Of a DNA stretch of 40,446 nt, positions 1-40,446 are shown one piece after another. The translations under genes and the position numbers were made by a program. The stretch is from an uncultured Gammaproteobacteria bacterium (lineage in GTDB: Bacteria; Patescibacteriota; Microgenomatia; CAYXHB01). Each line of letters begins with the position of its first letter. Position 1 is the stretch's first letter. The notes below the pieces were generated by a model, which was given only the letters and a program-made list of their open reading frames with translations, was not told the DNA's origin and did not search any database. Location of the stretch: positions 1 through 40,446 of the forward strand of contig CAYUGO010000002.1 of the NCBI GenBank assembly GCA_964444295.1. The letters run 5' to 3'.

Positions 1-331
1 TTGGCCGATAAGGAATTAAACTATTCGATCATGGCTGAAGTCAGATGTCTTGGTTGCTCCCATCTGGGGGCACAGAATAATAAGACTAATTGGGGTTGGG
101 TTTGATGTTTTTATATTATGTATGCTGGAGTGCAGACAAGAATATGGTATTTTTTGATTGGGTTTTTTATCTGCAGACTTGCAAATTCTGAATGACGGTA
201 AAGAAAGTGCTAATCTCTTAATATTGCACGTCATCCAGAGCGTAGCGAAGGATCTAGGAGATTTTTTGGGTATCTGTTCGTCATCCTTTGAATGATCAAG
301 GCAGATATTTTTATTGGTAGATTGAGAAGTA

Positions 332-1126
332 TTATTTGCGGTGGCGGAGAGTGAGAGGTTTGTGGTCAGACTCGGAGGTGAGGATGATGCGGGTGTATGT
401 TTTGGTTTCTTGGTTTGTTGGATGGTGAGAAATACTGACTTGGGGATTATTTAATAGTTCTATATGGTGATTTAATGAATCGGGATTGCTGGCAAATGTT
501 TGGAAGGATTGCCGGTCATAAAATGGGGGTAAGTGGGGTGTGTGAAAATTGGCTTTGTTGCCGATAACTGAGAGTCGAGATTGAAGTTGGAAAATTTCCT
601 CTGGGGTAAGATCTTGGTTGTTTGGGCCGAAAAGGCTATAAGGAAAGGTTCGAGATAGTAATCCCCAATGGATATTAATGGCTAATTGTTTTTTGGTTGG
701 ATTGGTTTCGATTTCATTTGATGTGTTTAATGTTGCTCTTTGATATTTTGAAGTTACAGCAGTAATTAACGGGGGAAAGTTGCATTGTTGTTTTAATTCT
801 GGAGAATACGGCGGATCAAGTTCATGTAAGAATTGAAGGCATTTTTCCATTCGCTTGGAGTAGCCTAATTGCCAATTGGTATCTAAAATACGTTCAATGG
901 ATGATTCGTTGCCCGGAGCAACTTGGGTTGTCTGAGGTGATTGGTCGGGTTGAGCTGTTTGTATTTGCCAACAGATGTCACAAAGTTGGTCGTCAATTCG
1001 TGGAGGGATTAAAACGGAGATTTTGGTGTTTGGTGATTCAGCAGGGGTATCAATTATTCCCTGGTTTATTTCTATTAGAATATCGCGGGCAATTTCGTAA
1101 GGACGAGGAATTGGTTCGATCCTCAT
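332..1126 (-). CDS. hypothetical protein (264 aa), close-coupled downstream of the tyrosine recombinase
   Basis: Uninterrupted ORF. Its start codon lies 3 nt after the recombinase stop (1130-1132). I recognise no motif. It is Pro/Gln/Thr/Asn-rich like the other minus-strand products here. Confidence 0.5.
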   Translation of the reverse strand: MRIEPIPRPYEIARDILIEINQGIIDTPAESPNTKISVLIPPRIDDQLCDICWQIQTAQPDQSPQTTQVAPGNESSIERILDTNWQLGYSKRMEKCLQFLHELDPPYSPELKQQCNFPPLITAVTSKYQRATLNTSNEIETNPTKKQLAINIHWGLLSRTFPYSLFGPNNQDLTPEEIFQLQSRLSVIGNKANFHTPHLPPFYDRQSFQTFASNPDSLNHHIELLNNPQVSISHHPTNQETKTYTRIILTSESDHKPLTLRHRK

Positions 1127-1129
1127 GTA

Positions 1130-2029
1130 TTAGAGTTCGCGGAGTTTATGTGAAGCGGAGGAGAATTTGTCTTTGATGAAATTTAGATATTTTTCGGTAG
1201 TAGACAGGCGTTTGTGTCCGGCTAGGCTAGAGATGTAAACGAGTGAAGCTCCATTAGCAAGGTGAGTAGCAATCCATGTGTGGCGTAGATCGTTAACTTT
1301 GGCGTCTTTGATACCTGCAAGTCGGAAATATCGATTGATTGAAGTGCGGATATTGCGGACGAGGAGGGCACGGTTGTTTTTGGTGACGAAAAGATAGTCG
1401 TTGGGTTTGCCATTTGGTCGAATAGCGAGCCAGTTTTCGATTGCAGTTTGAGCGGCTTGATTAAGTGGCACAGTCCGACCTGGTTGAGATTCGTAAGGAG
1501 GGACTTCGAGTTGGTCTTTGTGGAGGTGTTGGAGTTTAAGTAGTGAAAGTTCTCCAATGCGGATACCTGTTTGGAGTAAAATTTCGATGATGGCAGCGGT
1601 ACGGATATCGCCTCGAGCTGCATCTCTTAATGCTCTGTATTCAAGTTGAGTAAGGATACGAGGAGCCTTGGTTTCGTATTTGGGATGTTTGACGTTTTCG
1701 GCGGGATTAAGAGCTAGGCCTGTTTGTTGTTTGAGATATCGGAAAAAAGTTTTGATAGAATTAATTTTGCGAGAAATGCTTTTGGCTGTGTAGCCTGTGC
1801 TGTTAAGAAAATCTTTAAAAGCATTGAGATGTTCGGGTTCGATTTTGTCTGCTTGGTCTATTTGGTGCTCTTTGAGGACAAATTGAATCAATTGATCAAT
1901 ATCCTTACCATAGGCAAGCACTGTTGAGGTAGAGCGGTTGAGACCTTGAAGATGTTTGACGAATTCTTTATGGGCTTGTTGAAGCTCAAGAAGAGATTCT
2001 TGGGAGTCGGTTTTGGTTTTTTTGTCCAT
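1130..2029 (-). CDS. site-specific tyrosine recombinase, XerC/XerD (phage integrase) family
   Basis: 299 aa. An N-terminal core-binding region is followed by a catalytic domain with GIRIGEL (Arg I), NDLRHTWIATHL (H-x-x-R box), LAGH and STTEKY (catalytic Tyr). Confidence 0.85.
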   Translation of the reverse strand: MDKKTKTDSQESLLELQQAHKEFVKHLQGLNRSTSTVLAYGKDIDQLIQFVLKEHQIDQADKIEPEHLNAFKDFLNSTGYTAKSISRKINSIKTFFRYLKQQTGLALNPAENVKHPKYETKAPRILTQLEYRALRDAARGDIRTAAIIEILLQTGIRIGELSLLKLQHLHKDQLEVPPYESQPGRTVPLNQAAQTAIENWLAIRPNGKPNDYLFVTKNNRALLVRNIRTSINRYFRLAGIKDAKVNDLRHTWIATHLANGASLVYISSLAGHKRLSTTEKYLNFIKDKFSSASHKLREL

Positions 2030-2208
2030 GATTTTTGTGAAATAGTTGCTTGTTTATGAAGCAATTGCCGATTATATAGAGTCTTATAATATTTTGCAAG
2101 GGTTGGTTGGGACCAAAATATTTTTCTGTCTAAAAGTTGGCAGTGAAGGTAAAATATATTGGTCAAATTTAATTATATAGATCAGCATTTGTTTATATAG
2201 TAGTGTTT

Positions 2209-2297: not shown

Positions 2298-2594
2298 ATG
2301 AAGAGAAAATTGGCTAAATTAGGATTGGTTTTGGGGGTATTTGTATATCTTATAGTTTTATTGGTGCGAAATGTTGAGGTGCAAAAAAAGGCTAATGATT
2401 CATTGGAAGCGCTAGAATCGAGTGTTAAAGCTGAAGGTCGAGAACGAGTAAAATTGCAAAAAGAAGTGGAGCGGGCAAAGACTGATGAGTTTATCGAAGA
2501 GCAGGCTAGAGATACGCTTAATATGGTTAAAGAAGGCGAGACTGTATTGATTATGCCTGAGAACTTACCCAAAATTGTGGAAGATCAGGAGTAG
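2298..2594 (+). CDS. ftsB: septum formation initiator, FtsB/DivIC family
   Basis: 98 aa. It has an N-terminal TM helix (LGLVLGVFVYLIVLLV), a coiled-coil segment, and the family-typical C-terminal DEFIEEQARDTLNMVKEGETVL. Confidence 0.7.
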   Translation: MKRKLAKLGLVLGVFVYLIVLLVRNVEVQKKANDSLEALESSVKAEGRERVKLQKEVERAKTDEFIEEQARDTLNMVKEGETVLIMPENLPKIVEDQE

Positions 2595-2595
2595 G

Positions 2596-2667
2596 TGGCT
2601 ACGGGAGGACTTGAACCTCCGACATGACGCTTATGAAACGTCCGCTCTGCCCCTGAGCTACGTAGCC
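2596..2667 (-). tRNA. tRNA-Met (anticodon CAU), elongator type
   Basis: The reverse complement folds as a 72-nt cloverleaf: GGCTACG TA GCTC-AGGGGCA-GAGC G GACGT-TTCATAA-GCGTC ATGTC GGAGG-TTCAAGT-CCTCC CGTAGCC A. G1-C72 is paired. The acceptor stem matches the E. coli elongator tRNA-Met as I remember it. CCA is not encoded. Confidence 0.85.
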
Positions 2668-2714
2668 GTGTTGGGGATATTCTAGCAAAGCTGTAGTCTG
2701 TAAGGAAGAGCATG

Positions 2715-2723
2715 TGTTACAAT
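2715..2723 (+). promoter_or_regulatory. extended -10 element (TGtTACAAT) upstream of the second tRNA
   Basis: TGTTACAAT ends 10 nt before the tRNA 5' end at 2734. I see no convincing -35. Confidence 0.3.
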
Positions 2724-2733
2724 TTGCGTTGCA

Positions 2734-2806
2734 TGCGGGGTAGTGTACGGCTGCACGAGAGGCTCATAATCTCTCAGACCGGGTTCGACTCCCGGCTCCG
2801 CAACCA
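2734..2806 (+). tRNA. tRNA with CAU anticodon and an initiator-like acceptor stem (candidate tRNA-fMet; tRNA-Ile2 not excluded)
   Basis: 73-nt cloverleaf: TGCGGGG TA GTGT-ACGGCT-GCAC G AGAGG-CTCATAA-TCTCT CAGA CCGGG-TTCGACT-CCCGG CTCCGCA A CCA. GCGGGG/CxCCGC plus A73 resembles the bacterial initiator. However 1:72 is U:A and the anticodon stem lacks the three consecutive G:C pairs. CCA is encoded. Confidence 0.8.
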
Positions 2807-3153: not shown

Positions 3154-4224
3154 ATGTTTGGTGATGATGTAGAGTTTGAACCTTTGAGTTTTATCATAAT
3201 TGGAGCTGGGCAAGTTGTGAGTAAGTATTGGATTAGGGCAAGTCGTGAAGGATTAGTGAGAATTGTAAAAATTGTAGGATTAGAATCTGAAGATGTAGCA
3301 AAGGGAAATTTTGGAAATGGAAAATGGAATTATGAACAAACAAGAGGGACTGAACAGACGATAGAGATAATTAGTAAGTTGGTTAAAAATAAAAATGTTG
3401 ATGTGGCATTGGTAATCCCGCCTCGAGATAGACTGGAGATAATTAAAGCGTTGAGTGATGAGGGATTGCGAATGAGAGTTTTTGTGGAGAAACCATATGC
3501 TGATAATTTGGTTGATTTAGATGAATATAAAAAACTGATAACGGAAGATGAATTAGTTAAGTTTCATTTTGCTGGTAAATATGCCAATGGAAGAGCAAAT
3601 ATTTTGTATGGGCAGTTGCCTAAGGACAAATTACCCCTGTTGATGGAGATGAGTTTAATTGAGGGAAGTGAGTATTATCAGTATGTAATTGATAGAATTT
3701 GGAAAGAAGGTACACATCCGTATCTGGAAATTGGACCTGAGTTGGATTTGGGGTTTCATTTGTTGGATATTGGATCAACTTGGGCTAGAACTAGGGGAAG
3801 GAGTAATTGGAAGTTGATTGAAGCTCGGGAGTTGTCTGATGTTAATAAATCTTTTGGGAAAGGTTTTGGCGTAAGTGCTAAATTAGAGTTAGAAGTTGAG
3901 GGGTATAAGATTGAAGTTTTGGTAAAGGCAGGTAAGGGTGATGTGGAGAATGAAAGATTTGTAAAATTTAAATATGATGATGGAAGAGTTTATGTCCAAA
4001 ATTATAGTGTTGGAGGTGCAAATGATGTGGTGTCTGTGGAGAAGAATGGCGTTATAAAAGAATTAGATAGACATGAGGATGATTATAATTATTATGCGTA
4101 TGAATTGAGAAGGGATTTGTTTGCAAATCAGTCAAGAGAAGAACAGTTGGGAAGATTGGAAGTTAATGAAATTTGTTTGCGGATGAAAGAGATGAGATTA
4201 GACAGGGATTTGGGTGGGGAATAA
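3154..4224 (+). CDS. Gfo/Idh/MocA-like NAD(P)-dependent oxidoreductase (tentative)
   Basis: 356 aa. It has an N-terminal Rossmann-type IIIGAGQVV and a VEKPYA (EKP) motif about 100 aa downstream, as in the Gfo/Idh/MocA family. Confidence 0.5.
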   Translation: MFGDDVEFEPLSFIIIGAGQVVSKYWIRASREGLVRIVKIVGLESEDVAKGNFGNGKWNYEQTRGTEQTIEIISKLVKNKNVDVALVIPPRDRLEIIKALSDEGLRMRVFVEKPYADNLVDLDEYKKLITEDELVKFHFAGKYANGRANILYGQLPKDKLPLLMEMSLIEGSEYYQYVIDRIWKEGTHPYLEIGPELDLGFHLLDIGSTWARTRGRSNWKLIEARELSDVNKSFGKGFGVSAKLELEVEGYKIEVLVKAGKGDVENERFVKFKYDDGRVYVQNYSVGGANDVVSVEKNGVIKELDRHEDDYNYYAYELRRDLFANQSREEQLGRLEVNEICLRMKEMRLDRDLGGE

Positions 4225-4250
4225 TATGATTTGATGTTAGAATTCTGGAT

Positions 4251-4580
4251 ATGGAAGAAATAACTATTGATGATTTTGCAAAGGTAGAGATTCGAGCAGG
4301 CTTGGTTGAAGAAGCTATGGTGGTTGAAAAGAGTGATAAGTTGATTAGGTTGAGGGTTAGATTCGGGGAGGATGAAGTTAGGACTATTTTTAGCGGGATT
4401 CGTAAGTGGTATTCTCCTGAGGATTTGATAAATAAGAAGTTTGGTTTTGTTTATAATTTGAAGCCAAGATCGATGATGGGTGAGGAGAGCTGTGGGATGA
4501 TTATGGCGTTTGATGATGAAGAAAGAGCAATTTTGTGGGAGGTGTCTGAATGTGTAGCAATGGGAGCTTTGGTGAGGTAA
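4251..4580 (+). CDS. tRNA-binding domain protein (CsaA/Trbp111-like OB fold)
   Basis: 109 aa. DFAKVEIRAGLV...KLIRLRV.FGE...IFSGIRKWY.PEDLI.KK..FV.NLKPR.MMGEES.GMI is the pattern of the MetRS C-terminal/CsaA tRNA-binding domain. Confidence 0.75.
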   Translation: MEEITIDDFAKVEIRAGLVEEAMVVEKSDKLIRLRVRFGEDEVRTIFSGIRKWYSPEDLINKKFGFVYNLKPRSMMGEESCGMIMAFDDEERAILWEVSECVAMGALVR

Positions 4581-4630
4581 ATCCCCTGAAGGGTTGATTG
4601 TATTTGCATGATATTATATAAAAGCTAGTT

Positions 4631-6469
4631 ATGGCTAAGAATAGTTCCAAAAAACAAGTTAAGATGCAGATGAAGTTCAATTTGCGGAGTATTTTGGTGT
4701 GGTTGTTGGTACTTCTAGTGGGATTTCCAATTTTGGCAAGTATGGTACGGCAGCCAACTGCTGATAAAGAGATAACTTTGACGGAGGCTTTGCGGGCTAT
4801 TAAAGAAGGCAATGTGGAGGAAGTATTAGTAGACGGCGAGTTGTTGAACTTGACGTATAAGGATGGAAATGTGCGAGTGGCTCGCAAAGAGGGCACTGCG
4901 AATGTAACGGAGATTTTGAGTAATGCAGATATAGATCCATTGGCTTCTCAGATAAAGATCAAAGATGCTTCGATGTCTAAGGTATGGACTGATTTGTTGT
5001 TTTCGTTATTGCCGATTGTGGGAATGGCAATTTTACTTTTGTTTTTGTTTAGGCAGGCCCGAGGAGCACAAGACTCGGTGTTTAGTTTTGGGCAGAGTAA
5101 GGCAAAGCTATTTGATAAAGGGAAGCAGAGTGTGAAATTTGCTGATGTGGCGGGGGTTGATGAAGCTAAGAATGAACTTGAAGAAGTGGTGGATTTTTTG
5201 AAATTTCCTGCTAAGTACAAAGCAGTTGGAGCACGAACGCCCAAGGGCGTGTTGTTGGTGGGTCCAAGTGGTGTAGGTAAGACTCTATTGGCTCGAGCTG
5301 TAGCTGGTGAGGCTGGTGTGCCGTTCTATTCGATGGCAGGTTCAGAGTTTATGGAGATGTTGGTGGGAGTTGGAGCTAGTCGAGTAAGAGATTTGTTTTT
5401 GACTGCTAAGAAGAATGCCCCAGCAATTATTTTTATTGATGAAATTGATGCGATTGGGCGACAGAGAGGAAGCGGATTTGCGAGTGGAGCTCATGATGAA
5501 CGTGAGCAAACGTTGAATCAGATATTAGTTGAGATGGATGGGTTTACACCAAATGATAATGTGATTGTGTTAGCTGCTACAAACAGAGGGGATTTGTTGG
5601 ATAGTGCATTATTGAGACCCGGCAGGTTTGATCGACGGGTAAATTTGGAATTGCCTGATGTAGATGGACGCAAACATATATTGCAAATTCATGCTAAAGG
5701 GAAACCTTTTGCAAAAAATGTTGATTGGACTAAAGTGGCTAGACAAACAGTAGGTTTTTCTGGAGCTGATATTGAGAATATGTTGAATGAAGCAGCAATT
5801 CAGGCAGCTAAAAATGACCGGAAAGAGATATTGCCTCCAGATATAGAGGAAGCTGCAACTAAGGTAAAAATGGGTCCAGAGAAGAGGAGACTGCAAACTG
5901 ATTTTGAGAAGAAGATGACAGCATATCATGAAGCGGGACATGCTCTGGTGAGCTTTTATATGCCTCATGTTGACCCAGTACATAGGATAAGTATTGTTTC
6001 TCGGGGTATTGCTTTGGGGTATACGATGGTTAATCCGGAGAGAGATAGGGTTCATGAAACTCAATCGCAGCTTGAGGATATGATGGCTATGATGCTTGGA
6101 GGTAGAGCGGCTGAGGAAGTGGTATTTAGTGAGTTTACTGGTGGAGCTGTTAGTGATTTGCAAAGAGCAACCATGGTAGCCCGAAATATGGTGATGATGT
6201 TTGGAATGAGTAAACTGGGGCCTGTATATTACGGGAGACCTAACGAGGGAATGCTTGAAAGAGGTGCTGTATCTGATGAAATGCTAGCCAAAATTGATGT
6301 GGAGGTGGGTAAATCTTTGGATAAGGCATATCAGCGAGCGTTGGTAGTTTTGAAGGATAAACGGGATAAGTTGGACTTGGTAGCTAATAAATTACTTGAA
6401 ATTGAGACTTTGGAAGGAGACGAGTTTGCAACTTTGATTGGGGAGGAGAGACCGAAAGTCGAGCAATAG
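4631..6469 (+). CDS. ftsH: ATP-dependent zinc metalloprotease FtsH
   Basis: 612 aa. It has two N-terminal TM segments, Walker A GPSGVGKT, Walker [10 protein letters not shown], the second region of homology [19 protein letters not shown], and the zinc motif HEAGHA. Confidence 0.95.
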
Positions 6470-6489
6470 ATATTTGGTACAATTGAGCG

Positions 6490-7410
6490 ATGGCAGATAA
6501 GAAGAAATTATTATTGGTTGATGGGAGTGCTTTGATTCATCGAGCTTATCATGCGATGCCTGAGTTGAGTGATGCCCAGGGAAATCAAATCGGAGCGGTT
6601 TATGGGGTGGCGAGAATGTTGGTTAGAGCTATTCAAGATTTGGGACCCAGTCATGTAGTGGTGGCTTTGGATCGACCAGAGCCTACATTTCGAAAAGAAC
6701 TATTTATTGGTTATCAGGCAAATAGACCGCCAAGTGATGAGAAACTTGTGGAGCAATTTGGTAAGACGCGGGAGTTATTGGCTGCAATGAAAATGGTGGT
6801 TTTGGATAAAGCTGGTTTTGAGGCTGATGATGTGATTGGAACTCTGTGTGTGAGAGCGGTAGAGAGTAATCAATTTGAAAGTGTAGTAGTTGTGACTGGA
6901 GATAAGGATTTGATGCAATTGGTAAATGATAAAGTGAGTTTGTATATGCCGGTAAGGGGGATGAGTGAGACTGAGGTGGTAGATAACGCAAGGGTCTTGG
7001 AACGGTTGGGAATTAGGTCAGACCAAGTAGTTGATTACAAGGCTTTGGTGGGGGATGGAAGCGATAATTATCCTGGTGTTTATGGTATTGGTCCTAAAAC
7101 TGCAATAGATTTGCTGGCAAAATATGACAAGTATTCTGAAATTTGGAATCATATAGAAGAATTACCGAAAAACTTGGTAGGGAAATTAGAAAAAGGGCGT
7201 CAAGGAGGAGATTTGTCATATGTTTTGGCGACCATTAAAAAAGATGTTGAGATTGAAATAAATTGGTCTAAGTCAATTATTAATCAGAATTTAGGAAGTT
7301 ATTCTGAAGTTTTGAGGAATTTTGGGTTGAAAAGTTTGGCAAATCAATTAATTGAAGTGAAAAAGGATGAGGAATTAAAGACGGATCAGATTGGACTTTT
7401 TGAGGGATAA
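6490..7410 (+). CDS. standalone 5'-3' exonuclease (Pol I N-terminal / FEN-like)
   Basis: 306 aa. LLLVDGSALIHRAYHA, GFEADDVIGT, TGDKDLMQLV and GDGSDNYPGV.GIGPKTA (H3TH) are present. There is no polymerase domain. Confidence 0.85.
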   Translation: MADKKKLLLVDGSALIHRAYHAMPELSDAQGNQIGAVYGVARMLVRAIQDLGPSHVVVALDRPEPTFRKELFIGYQANRPPSDEKLVEQFGKTRELLAAMKMVVLDKAGFEADDVIGTLCVRAVESNQFESVVVVTGDKDLMQLVNDKVSLYMPVRGMSETEVVDNARVLERLGIRSDQVVDYKALVGDGSDNYPGVYGIGPKTAIDLLAKYDKYSEIWNHIEELPKNLVGKLEKGRQGGDLSYVLATIKKDVEIEINWSKSIINQNLGSYSEVLRNFGLKSLANQLIEVKKDEELKTDQIGLFEG

Positions 7411-7482
7411 TAATTATCTAACAAATTTAAACTAAAATACAGAATGGATTTGTAAGTAAATTTTTCTTATACACAAAGTAAG

Positions 7483-31418: not shown

Positions 31419-33778
31419 AGAGGAGTCGGGGTGGCGGATGGAAGATTAGAAGCAATTATTTTTACTGCTAAGTCGTCGCTTAGATTGGAGATGGGCAGAG
31501 TAATATTTCCTGTAGAGTTGGTAGTAAGGTTTTGGGTTTGGGTAATAGTTCCATTATAAGTATTCCACCATTGAACTATATAGTTTGAACTAGGAGTTAG
31601 TTTGGTAGTAATGGTTGATGATTGAGGGGTACTGGTTTTGTTCCAGGTGTGGTCTGCATTTTGGATCCAAATATATGCTTTAGTGCCATCGGATTTTTTT
31701 TGTCCGTAAGTTCGGATTTTGGTGTTCGTAGAGGTCGTTTGGGCGTCATTGAATCCTCCGCGATTGAGATCTAAGTCATTTATGTAATTATAGAAAGGTT
31801 TGGTAATACTAGCTTTGCCGTTGGTGATTTTTTGGATGTGTTCGGTATCAAACCAGTAACCTGTGGCGAAGGCGGCTCCTCGGGTGAGCTGTGACCAGAG
31901 CATGTTGTGATACCATGTGCCTGAATTGGCGGAAGTTATTTTGGGATCGTTGAGCGGGTTCCACCATTCAGCAGTTGAGCTTAATCCATTTTCTGCCCAG
32001 ATTAAAGGTTTGTTAGCATTTTTGGCGTAAGCGACTTCACCGACTTGTTTGACCCACTCGGCCATATCATAGGTATATGAGGAAGATGTGGTGTTGGGAT
32101 TGCCGGAGTATTCATGGAGATCTAAGTAATCGATGTCAGGATATTTGTTTTGAGAATTACTATAAAATGGAAAGCCGTCGTAGAGGGAGCAACACCAAAA
32201 TGAAGTTGTTGAAAGAACGGGATGGGCGCTAAGATTTTTGGTATAATGGGCAAGATTTTCTTGAACATTTTGCCAGTGTGATATGTCGTTAGGGTTTGCC
32301 TCGTTGACCGCTTCCCATGAATGAACTGCGGTTGAGTATCCCCAGCGAGCAATAAGATAACGATACCACTGTCTTTTGAGCCAGCTGGATTTGGTATTGT
32401 AAGGTTGGTCGTAACCAGTACCTTGGAGCCAGCTGGCCCAGGTGCCGTTTTCGTTAAGACTACGGAAGATGGGATCGTTTTTGTCATGAACATTATATTT
32501 AAGATAAATTCCATTAGCTTCTGCTTGTTGGACTTGCCAATCGAAAAAAGCAGCTGGCCGTTGTTCGACGTAGGTGTGCATATCGGCAGTCGGATTCCTG
32601 ATAATTTCTGCGCCATTTTCTTTGATTGATAGTTCGTAGATATCGGCCTTGCCTCCTGTCACATTGTCAAGATAAACCCAGATGTCGCTGCCTGTTCCGG
32701 ATGGAGTTGTAAATGAGGCTTGGAATGTTTGCCATCCGTTGGTACCTTGAGTTTGAGTAATATGGGAGAAAGGTTTAGGAGAATTTCTTAGGGTATTTTC
32801 TACAGTTTCATCAGTGGGATTGCCCCAGATAGGATTGCCAAATTTGATAACTAATCCATAAGGGTAGGAAGAATTTCGTGGACCTGTGATGTTGGTAGTT
32901 TTGGCGGATAACTTGATTTGATAATTAGTATTGGGTTTTATGGGAGTAAAAAATGATTCATCCATCCAACTGGTTAGCCAGTAGCGACTGGCGTTAGGAT
33001 ATTCTAAGTTGTAAGCAAGCCCATCGCTATTGGGATAGCGGTCTTGGAGAGAGTTCGTGAACGAGACTCTGGTTGAAATGCCTTCATTCCCGTGTTGCTC
33101 AGCTGAGGATTTCCAGCGGGCCCAGTTGGCAGAATATGCTCCTGAACCTCCCATCCAAGGTCGGACAAAGTTGAGTCCGGTGTCTTTGTATTTGGAAAAA
33201 TCTTCGTCACTATAGATAGGTCCAATGGGCCAGAAGAGTTTACCGTTGGAGAATTCAAAATAGCGATTATCAGTCGGACTGACTTTGATAAATCCATCTT
33301 TGGTAGGGGTTGTGGCGGTAAAAGATCCGGCGTTGAAGGTGGTGATGCCTGAGGCGTCGGTGGCACGGATTTGAACATTAAAAGTACCTTGTTCTTGTGG
33401 ACTGAATCTAATTACCCAGTATTTTTTGTTGGTTTCGGTAAATTTTAGACTACTGCCAGAACCTGATTTGGTAGTTTCGGTCATGTAGAATCCAGGGTGG
33501 GTCCAAGTTTTGCCGTTTGCAGTAAAAATTCCTTCAACTGTTATTCCAGTTTTGGGAGTAATTCCGGAAGGCGGAGTGGAATCATATTGAAAAAAATAAT
33601 TACTGGCAGTAGTGGTTAAATCAAATTTGGCTTCGTATTTTTCGTAGACTTTGACGGAGGAAGTTGTGGAGGAAAAATTTGATATAACTGGCCCATTAGA
33701 TTGGGCTAGAGTTGGTAGAGGAAAGAGAGCTAAGAGTAAAAGAATTGAGATAAAGAGGACAATTTTAATTTGGTTCAT
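31190..33778 (-). CDS. clan GH-A glycoside hydrolase with C-terminal dockerin, copy 2 (chimeric 3' end)
   Basis: The protein is identical to copy 1 except for the last ~70 aa. There the linker/dockerin (TNQPTP, LSRPCP, NDPKADL, GKTL) matches the SGNH gene's dockerin instead. Confidence 0.8.
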   Translation of the reverse strand: MNQIKIVLFISILLLLALFPLPTLAQSNGPVISNFSSTTSSVKVYEKYEAKFDLTTTASNYFFQYDSTPPSGITPKTGITVEGIFTANGKTWTHPGFYMTETTKSGSGSSLKFTETNKKYWVIRFSPQEQGTFNVQIRATDASGITTFNAGSFTATTPTKDGFIKVSPTDNRYFEFSNGKLFWPIGPIYSDEDFSKYKDTGLNFVRPWMGGSGAYSANWARWKSSAEQHGNEGISTRVSFTNSLQDRYPNSDGLAYNLEYPNASRYWLTSWMDESFFTPIKPNTNYQIKLSAKTTNITGPRNSSYPYGLVIKFGNPIWGNPTDETVENTLRNSPKPFSHITQTQGTNGWQTFQASFTTPSGTGSDIWVYLDNVTGGKADIYELSIKENGAEIIRNPTADMHTYVEQRPAAFFDWQVQQAEANGIYLKYNVHDKNDPIFRSLNENGTWASWLQGTGYDQPYNTKSSWLKRQWYRYLIARWGYSTAVHSWEAVNEANPNDISHWQNVQENLAHYTKNLSAHPVLSTTSFWCCSLYDGFPFYSNSQNKYPDIDYLDLHEYSGNPNTTSSSYTYDMAEWVKQVGEVAYAKNANKPLIWAENGLSSTAEWWNPLNDPKITSANSGTWYHNMLWSQLTRGAAFATGYWFDTEHIQKITNGKASITKPFYNYINDLDLNRGGFNDAQTTSTNTKIRTYGQKKSDGTKAYIWIQNADHTWNKTSTPQSSTITTKLTPSSNYIVQWWNTYNGTITQTQNLTTNSTGNITLPISNLSDDLAVKIIASNLPSATPTPLPPTPTNQPTPTSTPLSRPCPLIGDTNLCDNVVNALDFTYLSSKFGTNDPKADLKQDGVINVLDYSILSANFGKTL

Positions 33779-36350
33779 GGATATTAATTAATTACTTTGA
33801 TTTGAGAGGGATCGCTGATAATAATTTCTGGATCCTTGCCTTCAGGCCAGTATGGAGTGACATAACCTGAGATGATAACTTTTTTATTTAGAAAGGTCAT
33901 GGGGTCATAATTGAATTTGGATAAGTCTTTTTCAAAAATTCTAATTAATAAGGCTCCGTCGTGTGGATTTGTGAATCCTAGATATATTGCTTTGGGTCGA
34001 TGATTGACGGCTGACTTGATGGTTCCTTGGACTGTGACGTTTTGACCGATATATTTGGGGGCGTCCGTGTAGGAAATGGTTGGGAATTGAGAAGAATCAG
34101 CAGTTCCAAGAACTTGAGTATTTGGATTAGTTTGGGCTAAGGTTTGGTCAGACGTGTCTGAGGCAAGAGGATTGCCGTTGGTTAGAGCCATGATGGCCCC
34201 GTCGTTGGTTTTGACTAGAACTAGACCATCACTGACGACGGTATAGGGATCAGTTCCAGAGTTATTGTCATTGTGATATTCGTAGAAGCCTGGTGGATAG
34301 CTGCGTTGGTCTCCGTAAGAATAAAGACCTGCTTGGCAGTAACGAGTATTTGCGTTGAATGGGCAGTTGGATGGACCATAAGATGTGCCTGTACCGCCTG
34401 GGAAAATTTGGGGATTACATTGGGAATTGGTGGGTGGACAGTAAACTTGTCTCCAGATGACAAATGGAGCGTCAGAAGTTTTGATGGGATTGGTAAATGA
34501 TGCACCTAAGTTGGACGCGCGGTCGGTAATTTTTTTGGCTGAGTTAATGAGCCAATGACTATGGAAGATGGTGTCGCCTGACATAGCGATGTTCATCATT
34601 TCGTCGGTTTGAATGTCTGTGTAGCTGATAAACCTCATGTCACCTGTTGAATAGCCCGAGACTGTATTGTTATCGAGAACCATTTCGCCCATGGTGGCAT
34701 CTTCACGTCCATCGCACCAGCCCGTGCCACAAGCAAGTCCGTTGCGCCAGATTATGTAGGCTACTTCTTTGTCGTTAATAGTTTTGATGATCGGTTGAGG
34801 ACCCATTGGTAAGGTACCTCCGTCACCAGCACCGCCGTTGCCTACAGCAGGAACAAATGCTTGATTTCCTGTATCAAGGTTAAGTGGGAATAGTGCTTGA
34901 GCGCTTGGGGTTGATGCTAGAGCTGATTTGATTTGGCTATTAGTTGTGGGATATGGATTCCATGTCCAGAGAGAATCCCAGTCAAGCCGATAACGGATAA
35001 ATACTAAACCGTGTTGTTCAGCGATGACTGGCCATCCTTCTTCGGCTTGAGCTCCAGTTGAATTAAGTGTCCCTGACTGGTAATTACGGAGGGTTGGTTT
35101 TACTCGCCATTTGCGGGAGCCATCGGTGTTATTAATTGCATGAACATATAAATCTTGGGTTAGATAAATAAGGGCATTGCGAGATGGAGAGTATGAAACA
35201 GGAGTTGAACTTGGTGAATTACCTTGGTATTCCCAGACTTTGGTCATGAGATTTTTATCGACTTTGGTAAGGGTTCCAGATTGAGAAACGATGTAAATAG
35301 AGTTATCAACTAGCAAGGGTGTTAGATTGAGACTGGATGGAGCGGTGTAGGTTCTGGAGATTGAACCATTGGATGCATTAAGTTTGTATAGATTGTTGTT
35401 ATTTGAAGCAATATAAACGAATTCGTTATTGTAGATTGGGGTTGAGGTTAGATTTCCGAGTGAGTTGTTGGACCATAATACTTGGCCGTTGGCTTTGTTT
35501 AGAGCAAAGATAGTATTGTTGGCAACAGTATAGACTCGAGATCCGCCTGTAATTGGTTGGACTAGGGGAGGGGCGCTAAGATGATTAGCTTGTTTTTTCC
35601 CGTCAGATCCGGCGCCATTCCATTGCCAAAGATATTTCCAGGGGGTGGCTACTGTCTGGGGTGTATAACTTGTTCGTTGGGCGTTGTGTGCGAATTGAGT
35701 CCATTCGGTTGAACTAGTGGGACCTTGAGTTGGAGTAGGAGCGGGAGGAGTAGGTGAGTTAGTGGGAGCTGGGGTAGAAGTTGAGGGAGGTGAGGTTGGT
35801 CCGACTTTGCCAAAATTATTTGACAGAATAGTAAAGTCAAAAACATTGACATTATTATCTGAATTAAAATCTGCGCCTATATTATTGGAGCCGAAATTGG
35901 AAGAAAGATATGTAAAATCTAAGACATTAACTGTGTTGTTGCATGGTGGAGTGTCTCCTGGGAATGAACATCTAGTGCTGGTTTGGGCTTGGATTGTGAA
36001 TTTGGATGTAGATAGGCGAGGAAAATCAAAAATTAAATTGATTGAAATTAGTAGTAAAGATAATAGGATTAAGAGTTTCGTGTGATTCACTGATTTTATT
36101 ATATATATTAGTTGACATTAATTACAAAGTTTTACCAAAGTTAGCAGAGAGGATGGAGTAATCCAGGACATTAATAACACCATCTTGTTTTAAATCAGCC
36201 TTGGGATCATTAGTACCGAATTTGGAAGAGAGATAAGTAAAGTCTAGTGCATTAACTACATTATCACAGAGGTTAGTATCTCCGATTAGAGGACAAGGAC
36301 GAGACAGAGGAGTGGAAGTTGGGGTTGGTGAATTAGTGGGTGTTGGGGGA
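31419..36350. repeat. tandem direct repeat, unit 2 (4932 bp)
   Basis: As for unit 1. The only difference I found between the copies' flanking homologies is a dinucleotide at 31398-31399 (tg) versus 36330-36331 (ga). Confidence 0.9.
33784..36090 (-). CDS. PQQ-like beta-propeller protein with N-terminal dockerin, copy 2
   Basis: The 768-aa translation is identical to 28852-31158. Confidence 0.78.
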   Translation of the reverse strand: MNHTKLLILLSLLLISINLIFDFPRLSTSKFTIQAQTSTRCSFPGDTPPCNNTVNVLDFTYLSSNFGSNNIGADFNSDNNVNVFDFTILSNNFGKVGPTSPPSTSTPAPTNSPTPPAPTPTQGPTSSTEWTQFAHNAQRTSYTPQTVATPWKYLWQWNGAGSDGKKQANHLSAPPLVQPITGGSRVYTVANNTIFALNKANGQVLWSNNSLGNLTSTPIYNNEFVYIASNNNNLYKLNASNGSISRTYTAPSSLNLTPLLVDNSIYIVSQSGTLTKVDKNLMTKVWEYQGNSPSSTPVSYSPSRNALIYLTQDLYVHAINNTDGSRKWRVKPTLRNYQSGTLNSTGAQAEEGWPVIAEQHGLVFIRYRLDWDSLWTWNPYPTTNSQIKSALASTPSAQALFPLNLDTGNQAFVPAVGNGGAGDGGTLPMGPQPIIKTINDKEVAYIIWRNGLACGTGWCDGREDATMGEMVLDNNTVSGYSTGDMRFISYTDIQTDEMMNIAMSGDTIFHSHWLINSAKKITDRASNLGASFTNPIKTSDAPFVIWRQVYCPPTNSQCNPQIFPGGTGTSYGPSNCPFNANTRYCQAGLYSYGDQRSYPPGFYEYHNDNNSGTDPYTVVSDGLVLVKTNDGAIMALTNGNPLASDTSDQTLAQTNPNTQVLGTADSSQFPTISYTDAPKYIGQNVTVQGTIKSAVNHRPKAIYLGFTNPHDGALLIRIFEKDLSKFNYDPMTFLNKKVIISGYVTPYWPEGKDPEIIISDPSQIKVIN

Positions 36351-37312
36351 AGAGGAGTCGGGGTGGGAACAGTTGTGGGAGTTATACCTGCATTAGTGAG
36401 CATCTCGTATTGAGTAAAGGGAGTAATGTTTAGATTAAAATTGGTGTTAAATGGTTGAGTGAACCAAAGGTTGGCCATAAGCCCGTTGGCTACTGTTCCT
36501 AAGTGACCTGCGGTGTCTCCCAGACGAAAATGGTGTGGCTCATTGTTTTGGGCAAATACGTGTATTTTTTCTCCAGCAATGAGAATATCTCCTGAGCTAT
36601 CTAGTTTGGAAACTACATTAGCTGTCATCACTGTGTTTAGGTCAACGAAAACAATTCCATTTGCATCAGCTTTGGCTTCCCATGCGGTATTGATTGTGTT
36701 TATGGCATTTGTGACACGAGCGCGTTTGGTGGGATCAGGGTAGAGCATCGCAATGGGTGGAAAAATTCCTGGATCGCCAATGCTGGTCATGACGATTTGG
36801 GTGTTGCCAGCTTGTTTGATAATATCGATGGCTTGGTTCATCTTACTAATTATTTCGTTGACTTTGGTGTTGATGTTTACTGTATTGTTATAAACGCTGT
36901 CATAAGTTTGATTCCAAAAATTAAAGTCATTGACTCCTATATGAATAAATACGTATTTAACTTCTCCTGATCGGATTTGGCTTGCGAGTCCGGTTGCTTG
37001 ACCTGAATCAATGAGATCTCTAGTTAAATTGCCACTTTTGGACCAGTTGTATTTGTATCCAGTTCTTCGGTTATCGCTCCAAGTTCCCCATGGTCCGAAA
37101 TTGAGGTTTCTTTTCTTTACCAGCAGCTCCGCCCAATTGAAAGTAGTAGCTGCATATGTGCCACCTCTATTATCGTTTGCTCTGTATTCATCGGAGTTAC
37201 TATCGCTTAAGATGCCGATCCCTTCGTTGTTGTATGTGGCAAACGTTATAGATGGAAAAATAATTAAATTAAGGAGAGATAAAAATAATAATGTAGCAAG
37301 ATATTTTTTCAT
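36122..37312 (-). CDS. secreted SGNH/GDSL-type esterase with C-terminal dockerin
   Basis: I chose the start at MKKYLATLLFLSLLNLIIFPSITFA (signal peptide). The track ORF extends to GTG 37357. Block I is GILSDSNSDEY, block III is IHIGVNDF, and there is a distal DTAGH. Then come a PT linker and a dockerin whose DNA matches that of 31190-31436 at all but two adjacent positions (31398-31399). Confidence 0.72.
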   Translation of the reverse strand: MKKYLATLLFLSLLNLIIFPSITFATYNNEGIGILSDSNSDEYRANDNRGGTYAATTFNWAELLVKKRNLNFGPWGTWSDNRRTGYKYNWSKSGNLTRDLIDSGQATGLASQIRSGEVKYVFIHIGVNDFNFWNQTYDSVYNNTVNINTKVNEIISKMNQAIDIIKQAGNTQIVMTSIGDPGIFPPIAMLYPDPTKRARVTNAINTINTAWEAKADANGIVFVDLNTVMTANVVSKLDSSGDILIAGEKIHVFAQNNEPHHFRLGDTAGHLGTVANGLMANLWFTQPFNTNFNLNITPFTQYEMLTNAGITPTTVPTPTPLPPTPTNSPTPTSTPLSRPCPLIGDTNLCDNVVNALDFTYLSSKFGTNDPKADLKQDGVINVLDYSILSANFGKTL

Positions 37313-37379
37313 TTTTAAGCCTGTAATTACCTTAACATAGTTGGGGATGATTGGCACGTTTTTGGGTTGGAGTAATGGG

Positions 37380-37943
37380 TTACTTTAGATTTTGGAGAGC
37401 GTATTTGATTTGGTTTTCGAGAGTGGTTATTTCTGGTGGAATATTGTTGAGTATTTTTTGTATCTCATGTGATTTGTAACCTAAGCTAATTAGAGCATTA
37501 CCGAGTTCGCTTTCTTGGGTGTCTGATTGGAGATCTAGTTCGTTAAGTGAGCCAAGTTTGGTCTTGAGATCGACGATGATTTTCTGGGCACCTTTTTTGC
37601 CGACGCCGGAGATTTGGGTAAAGAAAGAAACGTCGGCCGTCATGATGGCTTGGATAGTTTGGGATGAAGGTTGGTTTAGAATGGCTAGTGCTATTTTGGG
37701 ACCAATGCCTGACACAGAAATGAGTTGGCGGAAGAGATCGCGGTCGGATAGGGAGTTAAATCCATAGAGTGTTAGTTGGTCTTCGCGGACGTGAGTGTGG
37801 ATGTGAAGTTGGGTTGGAGAATTGAGAATTAAATTAGAAAGAAGTGGTTGGGGAGCGTGGATTTCATATCCCACACCATTGACATCCAGAGTGAGGGTTT
37901 GGTTGGAGATAAGGATTACTTGCCCTTGGAGGTATGAGATCAT
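37380..37943 (-). CDS. ruvA: Holliday junction DNA helicase subunit RuvA
   Basis: 187 aa. It has the N-terminal OB MISYLQGQV...VNGVGYEI and two HhH motifs (VSGIGPKIALAIL, ISGVGKKGAQKII). Confidence 0.9.
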   Translation of the reverse strand: MISYLQGQVILISNQTLTLDVNGVGYEIHAPQPLLSNLILNSPTQLHIHTHVREDQLTLYGFNSLSDRDLFRQLISVSGIGPKIALAILNQPSSQTIQAIMTADVSFFTQISGVGKKGAQKIIVDLKTKLGSLNELDLQSDTQESELGNALISLGYKSHEIQKILNNIPPEITTLENQIKYALQNLK

Positions 37944-38035
37944 GGTTTGATTTACTTTAGTGTATTTTGGGGAATTTGGGAAGGGAAAAGCGAAAGAGAG
38001 GAATTGATATTGAATTGAATAGAGGAAGATGAGAT

Positions 38036-38515
38036 TTATCTTAAGGTAAAGGCGTGGGTGATGGCTGCGGCAAGGGCATCGGCGGCATCGTCTGGTTTGG
38101 GGACTTCTTGTAGCTTGAGGATTGATTTGACCATGAATTGGACTTGTTTTTTGTCGGCTCGGCCATAGCCAGTGATTGTTTGTTTGATTTGGAGGGGGGT
38201 GTATTCAAAGATAGGAATACCTGATTGTTTGGCAGCAAGTAGGAGGACTCCGCGGGCGTGACCTACCGACATGGCGGTTTTGGCATTGGTATTGAAAAAA
38301 AGTTTTTCGACTACGATGGCTTGGGGTTTGAATGTAGTAATTAATCTGGTGGTTTGGGTATGAATTTGGATGAGACGTTCGGCAAGATCGAGTTTGGGGA
38401 TGGTGGTGATGCAGTCGCAAGTAATATCAGAAAATGAACTTGGAGCAGTGTATGTAAGGAATCCCCAGCCAGTAAGAGCCGTGCCGGGATCAAAGCCAAG
38501 AATGCGAGTAGGCAT
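38036..38515 (-). CDS. ruvC: crossover junction endodeoxyribonuclease RuvC
   Basis: 159 aa. ILGFDPGTALTGWG, VVEKLFF, GYGRADKKQV and DAADALAAAITHA are present. Confidence 0.92.
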   Translation of the reverse strand: MPTRILGFDPGTALTGWGFLTYTAPSSFSDITCDCITTIPKLDLAERLIQIHTQTTRLITTFKPQAIVVEKLFFNTNAKTAMSVGHARGVLLLAAKQSGIPIFEYTPLQIKQTITGYGRADKKQVQFMVKSILKLQEVPKPDDAADALAAAITHAFTLR

Positions 38516-38521
38516 GCGTGA

Positions 38522-39904
38522 TTATTGGGGATTGATTTCTTGGAGTGTAACAGAAGTGATTGTGTCATCGATTAAGCCGGCGATGGCAGCAAGTTCGTCG
38601 CCAACACTGGTGGCTGAATCGGCGAATCGTATATATTGGAGAGCAGGGTTAGAATTTATGTCGCCTTTGTTATGAATGTCTATTTCAATATCACAATTAC
38701 CTGGGTTTTGGGCATTCACATGGTTTATTAAATTATTGTTACTGTCATTGAGGTAATCGGTAAGATGAGGGTTAAGAGTGTTATGTGGGGTAAATGCATT
38801 TGGACCATAGGCAAGGATTAACATGCAAGCATTGCTGTCGGCGACTGCATTTTGAAAGGCAGTTTTGGTGTTAGATCTAGCATTTGGACAAGAATTACGA
38901 AATTCATTAGAAATAGTGTCTTGAAGCAATCCGTAATCTTGATTACATAGTGGGTCACCAGATTCACCAGGGGCGGAGGGTAGACCATCTGTTATAACAA
39001 TAATGTATTTGTAATATGTAGAGTTTGCGGAAATTCCTGTTCGAGGATTTGATTGAAGTATTGATGAGGCTGTGTTGATGGCGGTGCTAAGATTGGCGTA
39101 TCCTGATGGATAGTCCATTTTGTATACGAAATTATTGTATATTGAAGGTGTGAATTCATTTATTTTGATGAGAGGGGCGGGAGCTGTAACGGTTTCAATG
39201 CCGGCTGGATTTGCCCCTACTGCTCCAAATATTACTTCGCTGACTCGTATGAGGTCGCGTTTTGAAATATCTTCAGCTGTACTGGGGGTTGGTGTGGGGG
39301 GTTCTGGATAGCCGAAGATTTTATAAACTTTTTTGATCCCTGATCTAACATCTGTCATTGGCTGGCAACTGCTAACTGGAGGTGGAGGGGATGATCCTGT
39401 TGGAGTCGGATTGGCAATGAGACATTGACAGTCTGAGCTAGAGCTAGCAATACAATTGTTGATGTATTGATTGGTTGAAAAGCTAGTTGCCCCCATACTG
39501 GAGGAACGATCTAGCAGTATGACGATGTCAGCATATTTATTGTAATTTGGTACTGAATTGGAGAAATTTGCTTGAGCACGACGGTTATTGTCGACGATTC
39601 CTGTTTGTGATTCAAAGGTATTAGCGTTATAGGTATTATTGATATTGGCAGTTAGTTCAGTTTTGTATGCACCGGTGTTATTGTCCATTCCAGCCGTAAT
39701 TCTTAATTTCCACCAAAGAGCATCATATAAATTGGCTAGGGAATTGTTAAGTGTTTGTTCATTGCGACCTTGTCCATATGTAGCCTCATAACTTTGTTTG
39801 ATCAGGATTAACTGTGTTGTGAGGATAATCGTAGTAATGATGGAAATAATTATTATTGTAATTAGAAGCATGGCTCCTGATTTTGGTGATTGGTTATGGT
39901 CCAT
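38522..39904 (-). CDS. von Willebrand factor A (MIDAS) domain protein with pilin-like N-terminal hydrophobic segment (candidate pilus-tip/minor pilin adhesin)
   Basis: MIDAS is ADIVILLDRSSSMG (DxSxS), with YIIVITDGLPS downstream. The N-terminus MDHNQSPKSG-AMLLITIIIISIITTIILT resembles a class III leader but lacks Glu5. The start is uncertain: in-frame ATGs lie at 39934, 39904 and 39871. Confidence 0.65.
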   Translation of the reverse strand: MDHNQSPKSGAMLLITIIIISIITTIILTTQLILIKQSYEATYGQGRNEQTLNNSLANLYDALWWKLRITAGMDNNTGAYKTELTANINNTYNANTFESQTGIVDNNRRAQANFSNSVPNYNKYADIVILLDRSSSMGATSFSTNQYINNCIASSSSDCQCLIANPTPTGSSPPPPVSSCQPMTDVRSGIKKVYKIFGYPEPPTPTPSTAEDISKRDLIRVSEVIFGAVGANPAGIETVTAPAPLIKINEFTPSIYNNFVYKMDYPSGYANLSTAINTASSILQSNPRTGISANSTYYKYIIVITDGLPSAPGESGDPLCNQDYGLLQDTISNEFRNSCPNARSNTKTAFQNAVADSNACMLILAYGPNAFTPHNTLNPHLTDYLNDSNNNLINHVNAQNPGNCDIEIDIHNKGDINSNPALQYIRFADSATSVGDELAAIAGLIDDTITSVTLQEINPQ

Positions 39905-40430
39905 ATTTTTGGCGTTTATTAGTAAATGTAACATCTGGGGTTAGATGAAGACTAGGGTTTAGCGTAGAATTAATTGTAAACTGGATTCTTATGAGAGGAA
40001 GGTATGATGATTGGTCATTGTTTATTGTGTCATTGGGAATATTGAATAATTGTGTGCTATTAATCTGGACATCGTTGGGGTGTATAGGTGTTCCATCTTT
40101 GGTGAGGGTAGAGCCAGAAAGAATATATTGATGAGCTGTAGTATTGAGAGTATTAGATCCTGGAACTGAAATTCCATCAGGAGTACTCCAGCGAATTGAG
40201 TCACGAATATCTTGGATGACCAGAGTACTTGTTTGTTGAAGTTGGTTTAGTTGTTGAAGTTGGGCTCGGGTACGGAAGATTGAAACTAGCATTTGAGCTG
40301 TCATTGTTAGAATAATCATGCCTATGCTTGAGGCAATTAGTAACTCGATAAGAGTTAATCCTTGTTTTGGTTGTTGAATATTATGGATTTGGATGTGTTT
40401 CATAGTCAGTAAATATTGTTTTGACTTCAT
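39894..40430 (-). CDS. type IV pilin / pseudopilin-like protein (prepilin-type N-terminal cleavage/methylation motif)
   Basis: KQG-LTLIELLIASSIGMIILT is the canonical G/(F,L)TLIE motif with Glu5. An alternative start is ATG 40403. Confidence 0.75.
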   Translation of the reverse strand: MKSKQYLLTMKHIQIHNIQQPKQGLTLIELLIASSIGMIILTMTAQMLVSIFRTRAQLQQLNQLQQTSTLVIQDIRDSIRWSTPDGISVPGSNTLNTTAHQYILSGSTLTKDGTPIHPNDVQINSTQLFNIPNDTINNDQSSYLPLIRIQFTINSTLNPSLHLTPDVTFTNKRQKYGP

Positions 40431-40446
40431 AGAATTTTTCGGTTGA

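Follow-up and report, generated by a model that had tools for sequence, protein, structure and literature searches.

A strong disparity between G and C on one strand of an entire bacterial chromosome has been described for Candidatus Chazhemtobacterium aquaticus Ch65 (CP047901; order UBA1400, class Microgenomatia), a member of the Candidate Phyla Radiation (CPR) with a closed genome of 801,504 bp (Kadnikov et al. 2020, PMC7143001). One strand of that chromosome contains 29.83% C and 14.97% G, a GC skew, (G-C)/(G+C), of 0.33 in absolute terms, with A approximately equal to T, and the cumulative skew is near-linear and monotonic round the whole molecule. Both strands carry genes: 449 (54%) are on the C-rich strand, which also bears the rRNA genes, and 389 are on its partner. 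The authors proposed either that origin and terminus lie side by side or that replication is unidirectional. Here we analyse a 40,446-bp stretch of DNA (hereafter the window), which is the whole of contig CAYUGO010000002.1 of an NCBI metagenome-assembled genome (GCA_964444295.1). The plus strand of the window carries an excess of G over C that is larger still than that of Ch65, that holds at silent sites whichever way the gene points, and that recurs in related lineages.

The same 2020 paper (PMC7143001) reports that the relatives of Ch65 come from anaerobic digesters and wastewater, and that a more distant member of the same order lacks the disparity. The complete genomes of Ca. Collierbacteria RIFOXYD2_FULL_45_13 and Ca. 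Beckwithbacteria GW2011_GWC1_49_16 also have monotonic cumulative skew with a weaker disparity (PMC7143001), for which we compute 0.135 and 0.155, respectively, from Table 1 of that paper. A 2024 survey found Ch65 to be the obvious outlier among 17,873 complete genomes, and according to a paper of the same year the initiation of chromosomal replication is always bidirectional. Our literature search found no later work on the mechanism of the disparity.

The window resembles Ch65 in its large G/C disparity (0.386, compared with a published range of 0.135-0.33), in having A approximately equal to T, in that gene distribution does not explain the disparity, and in belonging to a CPR/Microgenomates bacterium with a small genome; moreover, its sequence is found in bioreactor metagenomes. 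It differs in that the published case is a closed chromosome and ours is 40 kb, in that the skew is stronger both in the window (0.39) and in its relative L084 (0.47), and in that the clade of the window is not close kin of Ch65, or is not detected as such among the best 120 homologues of three proteins. The Collierbacteria and Beckwithbacteria genomes belong to the same class and have monotonic skew, but their disparity is much weaker than the 0.27-0.47 of the window's clade. Ordinary bacterial GC skew is likewise a strand-specific mutational asymmetry; its usual size, however, is 0.02-0.2, compared with 0.39 here and about 0.75 at neutral sites, and it usually comes with an excess of T over A, whereas the neutral sites of the window have no AT skew. 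In the purine asymmetry of Firmicutes ('discordant' skews in SkewDB), both G and A are in excess on the leading strand; it is resembled by two relatives of the window, L086 and L090, in which the G-rich strand is also A-rich at fourfold sites. In Firmicutes the skew largely tracks gene-strand and codon bias (SkewDB), whereas here genes lie on both strands, the effect of gene sense is small, and A is approximately equal to T in the window's own lineage.

This type of disparity is therefore already published for related CPR bacteria (Kadnikov et al. 2020), and the window is a slightly more extreme instance, possibly from a separate lineage. Our preferred reading, which we hold with moderate confidence, is that the window comes from a Microgenomatia clade under extreme strand-specific mutation pressure, which strips cytosine from one strand and guanine from its partner, is tied to replication with the fork passing one way, and is the phenomenon described for Ch65. 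PMC7143001 appears to contain no codon-position, substitution-rate or inversion analysis. Relative to that paper, the new elements would be the neutral-site figures (5% C; skew 0.72-0.85), their separation into effects of strand and of sense, the extension to a clade of six or more lineages together with a syntenic outgroup in which the extreme skew is missing, a re-equilibrated inverted segment, a low-skew island, and first estimates of the asymmetric substitutions.

Size of the skew and its independence of gene orientation

A full count of the window gives A 11047, C 5122, G 11565 and T 12712 (G+C 41.3%), which corresponds to a GC skew of +0.386 and an AT skew of -0.070, with G and C about 50 standard deviations from parity. 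Every 2-kb window has a GC skew between +0.23 and +0.57, and the lowest value among 400 overlapping 500-nt windows is +0.04, so that not one of them is negative. The value rises to +0.402 when one copy of a perfect 4.9-kb repeat is removed. Expressed in plus-strand letters, the skew is +0.506 for the pooled plus-strand genes and +0.315 for the pooled minus-strand genes, and it is positive in every single gene (0.19 to 0.67). A preliminary description of the window, made from the letters alone, had claimed this extreme excess of G over C on the strength of sampled lines, and the full count upholds it. Its ten sampled lines (A165 T184 G173 C78) agree exactly with our recount and its sub-sums of +0.48 for plus-strand genes and +0.30 for minus-strand genes are reproduced, but five additional minus-gene lines reported as G96 C55 (+0.27) contain G86 C52 (+0.25), a small miscount.

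The preliminary description had also stated that bacterial skews are usually far smaller. Consistent with this, 80 ruvB-centred control loci of about 20 kb from other bacteria, taken from a RuvB peptide-pattern scan of genome contigs, have a median absolute skew of 0.10 and a maximum of 0.19; two other Patescibacteria loci have skews of 0.03 and 0.00, and SkewDB describes the usual effect as 'typically around 2.5%'. With a maximum of 0.19 among the controls, the window lies outside the normal bacterial range.

We split the genes by codon position, with all counts expressed in plus-strand letters. At fourfold-degenerate sites the GC skew is +0.72 in plus-strand genes (G 531, C 85) and +0.77 in minus-strand genes (G 1313, C 174), and intergenic DNA has a skew of +0.415 (G 726, C 300). 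Since the silent sites of both gene sets follow the same chromosome strand, genes of opposite orientation make opposite codon choices, and translational selection and transcription are excluded as the main cause. With the duplicated genes left out, fourfold sites comprise A 1489, G 1561, T 1430 and C 228 (approximately 32, 33, 30 and 5%). The AT skew at fourfold sites is -0.01 in plus-strand genes and +0.04 in minus-strand genes and, because it is close to zero, the excess of T over A in the window as a whole is a coding effect. First codon positions have a GC skew of +0.56 in plus-strand genes and -0.05 in minus-strand genes; it is this difference, and not a weaker bias, that lowers the overall skew of the minus half (0.32 versus 0.51).

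The skew is independent of gene orientation in four related loci as well (L002, L003, L084 and L090). When the fourfold skew of these loci and the window is split, 0.57-0.76 falls to a strand effect and 0.02-0.11 to a sense effect. A motif- or context-specific cause, such as methylation or APOBEC-like editing, was considered and rejected, since C is depleted to 3-8% in every neighbour context. Codon selection and transcription effects were also rejected, given the equal fourfold skew in both orientations, the split between strand and sense, and the reversal of the skew in one related locus (L093, described below). We conclude that the asymmetry is mutational and strand-specific, and is not a coding or transcription effect. 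A strong strand-specific mutational bias that ignores gene orientation was what the preliminary description had inferred, and the separate treatment of fourfold sites by orientation that it proposed bears the inference out: the sign of the skew does not follow the gene, the spacers share it, and the L093 orthologues carry the opposite one.

The contrast between the strands extends to the proteins. In the window, Thr, Pro, Asn, Gln, His and Ser are overrepresented in the products of minus-strand genes, and Met, Glu, Val, Arg, Lys, Trp and Gly in those of plus-strand genes, so that the amino-acid contrast pointed out earlier holds. Relative to about 110 homologues, RuvB is 5.6 standard deviations high in Thr and 3.5 in Gln, and FtsH, again relative to about 110 homologues, is 3.4 standard deviations high in Val and 3.1 in Met. 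Codon usage and amino-acid composition thus depend on the strand on which a gene lies, and the resulting shift in composition exaggerates the divergence of proteins and can be a source of error in phylogeny, binning and gene calling. The suggestion that the skew explains the many long antisense shadow open reading frames (ORFs) stands in part. On the C-rich strand the density of stop codons is 0.031-0.046 per codon, roughly half the 0.061-0.074 of the G-rich strand, in agreement with the suggestion; however, the G-rich strand carries 8 of the 21 spurious ORFs that reach 100 aa or more.

Related lineages, a syntenic outgroup and an inverted segment

Loci of relatives were obtained through exact-protein look-ups and come from independent NCBI, ENA, JGI and Logan assemblies. 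Nine loci from about six related lineages have absolute GC skews of 0.27-0.47. Three of them carry ruvB on the plus strand and have negative values, namely L001 (GCA_964464795.1; RuvB identity 81%) at -0.40, L002 (JGI; 82%) at -0.35 and L003 (Logan; 73%) at -0.27. The positive values are +0.47 in L084 (GCA_964561945.1; FtsH identity 97%), +0.40 and +0.41 in L086 and L089 (GCA_964650355.1; FtsH 65%), +0.43 in L088 (JGI), and +0.31 and +0.33 in L090 and L091 (JGI). Polarity is constant across these loci, with ruvB on the C-rich strand and both ftsH and the gene for a DUF8128 ATPase on the G-rich strand, and over flanks of at most 10 kb no 2-kb window of the clade changes sign except in L093, which has a low-skew island. 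A syntenic outgroup locus, L092, has the same gene order (DUF8128 ATPase, xerC, divIC, ftsH) and an ATPase that is 60% identical, and its skew is -0.08, with a fourfold strand component of about 0.23, which is of ordinary size. By these comparisons, the extreme skew is a trait of the clade that is absent from the syntenic outgroup.

The composition of silent sites varies within the clade. On the G-rich strand of L086, fourfold sites are 66% G, 20% A, 9% T and 5% C, and in L090 the fourfold AT skew is +0.15 to +0.45, with A exceeding T on the G-rich strand. In these higher-GC relatives the asymmetry is one of purine versus pyrimidine, whereas in the window and L084 A is approximately equal to T. 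The feature that is steady across lineages is a C content of 4-9% at fourfold sites (11.8% in the plus-strand genes of L090). Neutral sites with 5% C on one strand are among the strongest breaches of Chargaff's second rule in cellular genomes.

In L093 (RuvB 69% identical), the segment from ruvB to pth is oppositely oriented relative to the skewed strand. The sense-strand fourfold skew of ruvB is +0.60 in L093 and -0.66 to -0.78 in the window and three relatives; that of pth is -0.80 in L093 and +0.48 to +0.74 in the others. Amino acids have shifted as well, in the pattern (Thr, Pro and Gln versus Val, Glu and Arg) that matches the strand. RuvB contains 5.5% Thr in L093, compared with 8.3-10.3% in the window and relatives, and Pth contains 6.8% Pro (1.1-2.2% in the others), 5.0% Val (7.9-11.7%) and 2.3% Glu (5.4-8.7%). 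Orthologues on opposite strands, the comparison that the preliminary description had recommended, thus differ both at silent sites and in amino acids. This shows that it is the strand, and not the gene, that drives composition, with first the silent sites and then the amino acids of an inverted segment re-equilibrating. With lineages that range from 0.27 to 0.47, a syntenic outgroup without the extreme skew and one inverted segment, the clade lends itself to comparisons aimed at the gain or loss of a gene that underlies the asymmetry.

The low-skew island of L093 spans positions 3499-7636 and encodes an IS1595-type transposase, a histidine phosphatase, a PEP-utilising enzyme and a Trp-repressor-like protein. 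Its fourfold skew is about 0-0.17, compared with 0.5-0.86 in the rest of the locus, and the island is probably a recent acquisition still short of equilibrium. Recently acquired DNA is visible in this clade as low-skew islands such as this one, which suggests that the skew could serve as a clock of gene transfer.

Substitution rates and the case for replication

Codon alignments were made for 14 genes with orthologues in both the window and L084. Identity at fourfold sites is 0.46, whereas random agreement would give 0.305; retention is 46-52% for A, G and T, and 6.7%, the chance level, for C. Because C is retained only at chance, cytosines of the G-rich strand must turn over much faster than the other bases. 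A general time-reversible fit to 1546 fourfold sites puts the exit rate of C at 3.4 times that of G (bootstrap 2.2-5.9) and, on the G-rich strand, the rate of C>A at 4.5 times that of G>T (1.9-9.4). Since fourfold sites are near saturation, we also analysed two-fold sites, where only transitions are scored and no reversibility is assumed. Two-fold C/T sites are 90% T and 10% C, and A/G sites are 52% G and 48% A. On the G-rich strand the ratio of C>T to G>A at these sites is 1.9 (1.3-2.8) and that of T>C to A>G is 0.19 (0.13-0.28), and both ratios are equal in plus- and minus-strand genes. As estimated from these alignments, all three asymmetries deplete C, through faster loss to T, faster loss to A, and a T>C rate about five times lower than that of A>G. 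Four near-identical assembly pairs (L084/L085, L084/L088, L086/L087 and L090/L091) have at most 16 differing sites, which does not suffice for a spectrum, and all-site differences from the Logan runs were not used, being unpolarised and mixed with a second divergent strain.

Mismatch-repair-deficient E. coli in the mutation-accumulation work of Lee et al. in 2012 reportedly shows leading-strand transition asymmetries with A>G above T>C and C>T above G>A. Because the direction of the transition asymmetry in the window matches this pattern, the cause may be linked to replication, with the G-rich strand as the leading strand. The rRNA genes of Ch65 lie on its C-rich strand, which calls for caution over assuming the usual leading-strand polarity. 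In the window and the relatives' loci, we found no gene-strand bias that would point to the leading strand: genes, tRNAs and the few highly expressed genes seen (ftsH, the L25 gene and secDF) are spread over both strands. The preliminary description had remarked that, should the plus strand be the leading one, 19 kb of genes (21.4-40.4 kb) would be transcribed head-on; nothing in the window shows which strand leads, and the remark keeps its conditional form.

Under our preferred reading, the asymmetry would be tied to replication, with a single fork direction across the whole region, and would be the same phenomenon as in Ch65; candidate causes are an error asymmetry of the polymerase, missing repair, or damage to an exposed strand. 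Several points weigh against this reading. Nothing in the 40-kb contig indicates the direction of replication, an origin or a terminus. The rates rest on strongly diverged sites, and those at fourfold sites on a reversible model, so they should be treated as rough. Deamination of cytosine on an exposed strand predicts enrichment of T, yet A is approximately equal to T at fourfold sites here and exceeds T in L086 and L090; since T is not enriched, plain cytosine deamination is not the whole story. The reversed polarity of L093 suits an inversion, but it equally suits an ordinary architecture of two replichores. With regard to Ch65, neither it nor Collierbacteria nor Beckwithbacteria is found among the best 120 matches in each of three protein searches (RuvB, FtsH and DUF8128 ATPase); membership of the same order (UBA1400) is thus unproven, and the trait might have arisen independently, although amino-acid change driven by the skew may itself push Ch65-type proteins apart in homologue searches.

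Of the alternatives, ordinary bidirectional replication with an unusually strong asymmetry between leading and lagging strands has the most in its favour, although we consider it rather unlikely. The window would then lie inside one replichore, with the sign changing elsewhere. The skew does not change sign in the 40 kb of the window or in about 170 kb of relatives, but all of these loci come from the same syntenic neighbourhood; L093 carries the same genes with reversed polarity, as if segments lay on either replichore, and bidirectional initiation is held to be universal (2024 paper). Against it, the three related complete genomes with the disparity have cumulative skew that is monotonic over the whole chromosome. 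If the disparity truly spans the whole chromosome here too, the clade would represent a natural case of one-directional chromosome replication. A bolder version of our preferred reading holds that the clade copies its whole chromosome in a single direction, or in another asymmetric mode, breaking the rule of bidirectional initiation, and that the 6- to 7-fold shortage of C seen at neutral sites reflects a spectrum of replication-strand errors or damage (A>G about 5 times T>C, C>A about 4 times G>T) not known in cultured bacteria, possibly with an origin separate from that of Ch65. We put this forward tentatively and consider it rather unlikely.

A different strand-specific process, such as strand-displacement or rolling-circle-like replication as in animal mitochondria, or strand-biased damage or repair (for example of oxidised guanine on the C-rich strand), seems improbable to us. 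Animal mitochondrial DNA likewise has a silent-site skew of comparable size and of one polarity over the whole molecule that reshapes proteins, and the neutral-site skews of 0.6-0.85 fall within the range of vertebrate mitochondria. In addition, C>A on the G-rich strand, which is G>T on the C-rich strand, is about 4.5 times its complement, the direction expected of 8-oxoguanine; there is no enrichment of T, and in L086 and L090 purines predominate overall on the G-rich strand. However, mitochondria have a strong AT skew and a known asymmetric mode of replication, whereas the DNA here belongs to a bacterial chromosome of about 1 Mb (genomes of approximately 0.8-1.1 Mb) and its neutral sites do not show the coupled GC and AT skew: AT skew is about zero in the window and L084, and A exceeds T in L086 and L090, the opposite of a G+T-rich strand. 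Moreover, the window contains an fpg gene. An effect of coding or transcription (codon preference, transcription-coupled repair or deamination, or crowding of genes on one strand) might be read from the higher overall skew of plus-strand genes and the small sense component, but the gap between the gene sets comes from first codon positions, the fourfold sites of both orientations agree in sign and size, spacers are skewed as well, and the same genes bear opposite skew in L093; we regard this explanation as very improbable. Still less credible is an artefact of sequencing or assembly, a chimera, or a rolling-circle plasmid or phage. The perfect 4.9-kb tandem repeat is possibly an assembly artefact and coverage is low (about 5x) in the runs that hold the window, but the sequence is reproduced by contigs from three runs, reading frames are intact, and the genes include the housekeeping functions ftsH, pth, ruvABC, recF, fpg and tRNA-Met. 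For the skew itself an artefact is ruled out, because independent NCBI, ENA, JGI and Logan assemblies of several species share it.

Gene content of the contig

The sequence of the window is also present at about 5x in three bioreactor metagenome runs from 2017 (Logan contigs). Assignment of the host to class Microgenomatia was tested with named homologues of RuvB, FtsH and the DUF8128/TraG-like ATPase, and is supported: at about 59-63% identity these are annotated as Shapiro-, Woese-, Pace-, Ames- and Gottesmanbacteria or 'Microgenomates group'. From these homologues we conclude that the host is a CPR bacterium of this class, and we take the contig to be chromosomal DNA. The RuvB peptide-pattern scan of genome contigs found nothing closer than 59% identity, its matches being mostly from Bacillota and Coriobacteriia, and exact-protein look-ups with the first and last long ORFs of the window found no record.

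Table 1 Features of the 40,446-bp window, with skews given for the plus strand
Feature	Position	Strand	Remarks
Whole contig	1..40446	.	Plus strand G-rich and C-poor throughout; GC skew +0.386; sign constant
Unknown protein and XerC/D-like recombinase	332..2029	-	C-rich sense strand; fourfold-site skew +0.77 and +0.86
Divergent tRNA-Met(CAT) pair	2594..2806	2594-2667 (-), 2734-2806 (+)	Structural RNAs; composition constrained whatever the skew
Oxidoreductase-like protein, tRNA-binding domain protein, ftsH, 5'-3' exonuclease, glycosyltransferase, fpg, recF, fic	3154..12639	+	G-rich sense strand; per-gene fourfold skew +0.57 to +0.83
Lone minus-strand gene inside the preceding block	9991-10437	-	
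Gene for a 637-aa protein with a weak dockerin match	12645..14558	-	Lowest whole-gene skew in the window (+0.19); fourfold-site skew +0.60
ATP-dependent DNA ligase, P-type ATPase, small membrane protein, pth	14589..21196	+	G-rich sense strand; fourfold-site skew +0.48 to +0.90
Glycosyltransferase inside the preceding block	19030-20145	-	
ruvB, cohesin/dockerin protein block, ruvA, ruvC, VWA-like protein, pseudopilin	21454..40430	-	19 kb; C-rich sense strand; fourfold skew +0.61 to +0.91

Thirteen genes of the window have a G-rich sense strand and 18 a C-rich one (Table 1). In the long minus-strand block that begins with ruvB, the overall skew is 0.23-0.35, lowered by first codon positions at about -0.05 on the plus strand. 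The gene for the 637-aa protein is not found in the relatives L084 and L001.

The repair and replication genes within the window are fpg, recF, ruvABC, the ATP-dependent ligase and the 5'-3' exonuclease, and none of these explains the asymmetry. The origin markers dnaA and dnaN were not found in the window, and its recF does not lie beside them. The exonuclease (6490-7410) is a stand-alone protein rather than part of a full DNA polymerase I, and the ligase (14589-16469) is of the ATP-dependent, archaeal/eukaryotic type; both are kept in relatives. In L089, a run of genes upstream of the syntenic region (71-5245) encodes dCTP deaminase/dUTPase-like, NUDIX hydrolase, Ppx/GppA, HIT and Ham1-like (d)ITP/XTP pyrophosphatase proteins. 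This set of nucleotide-pool genes may bear on the mutational bias, but only as a lead.

The two tRNA-Met(CAT) genes lie 66 bases apart and face away from each other, and the pair is kept in L084 (7161-7372); one of the two may be an initiator tRNA or tRNA-Ile2. A 141-aa ORF at 2712-3137 overlaps the plus-strand tRNA-Met gene, which makes the ORF, or its start, doubtful. A tRNA-Ile gene with anticodon TAT, which is uncommon in bacteria, lies just downstream of the gene for the DUF8128/TraG-like ATPase in L084 (4393-4465), L089 (12481-12553) and L090 (12399-12471), at a site that corresponds to just beyond the left end of the window. At that end, the Logan contigs of all three runs diverge from the window within about the first 90 bases: there are loose ends at 28, 73 and 81, and an A is inserted after 87. 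The outermost left part of the contig may be a misassembly or a variable stretch.

The minus-strand genes between ruvB and ruvA form a block of about 15 kb (22518-37357) that resembles a cellulosome kit. Two of them encode cohesin proteins (22518-23417, and 24256-25899 with two cohesins and a dockerin), and the dockerin-tagged products are a DUF5060 protein, a PQQ-type beta-propeller and a GDSL esterase. The block is absent from L001 and L002, where ruvA comes almost immediately after ruvB. Because its silent sites are fully skewed, the block did not arrive recently, and a cohesin/dockerin system in a CPR bacterium seems worth attention. The block contains the tandem repeat, two copies (26484-31397 and 31416-36329) of 4914 bases that are 100% identical at an offset of 4932 and represent a duplicated pair of genes for 862-aa and 768-aa proteins. 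The copies differ only over the first 226 bases of the aligned gene pair (26258-26483), at 36 sites; being identical outside these bases, they give no substitution spectrum. Either the tandem duplication happened very recently or the repeat is an artefact of assembly.

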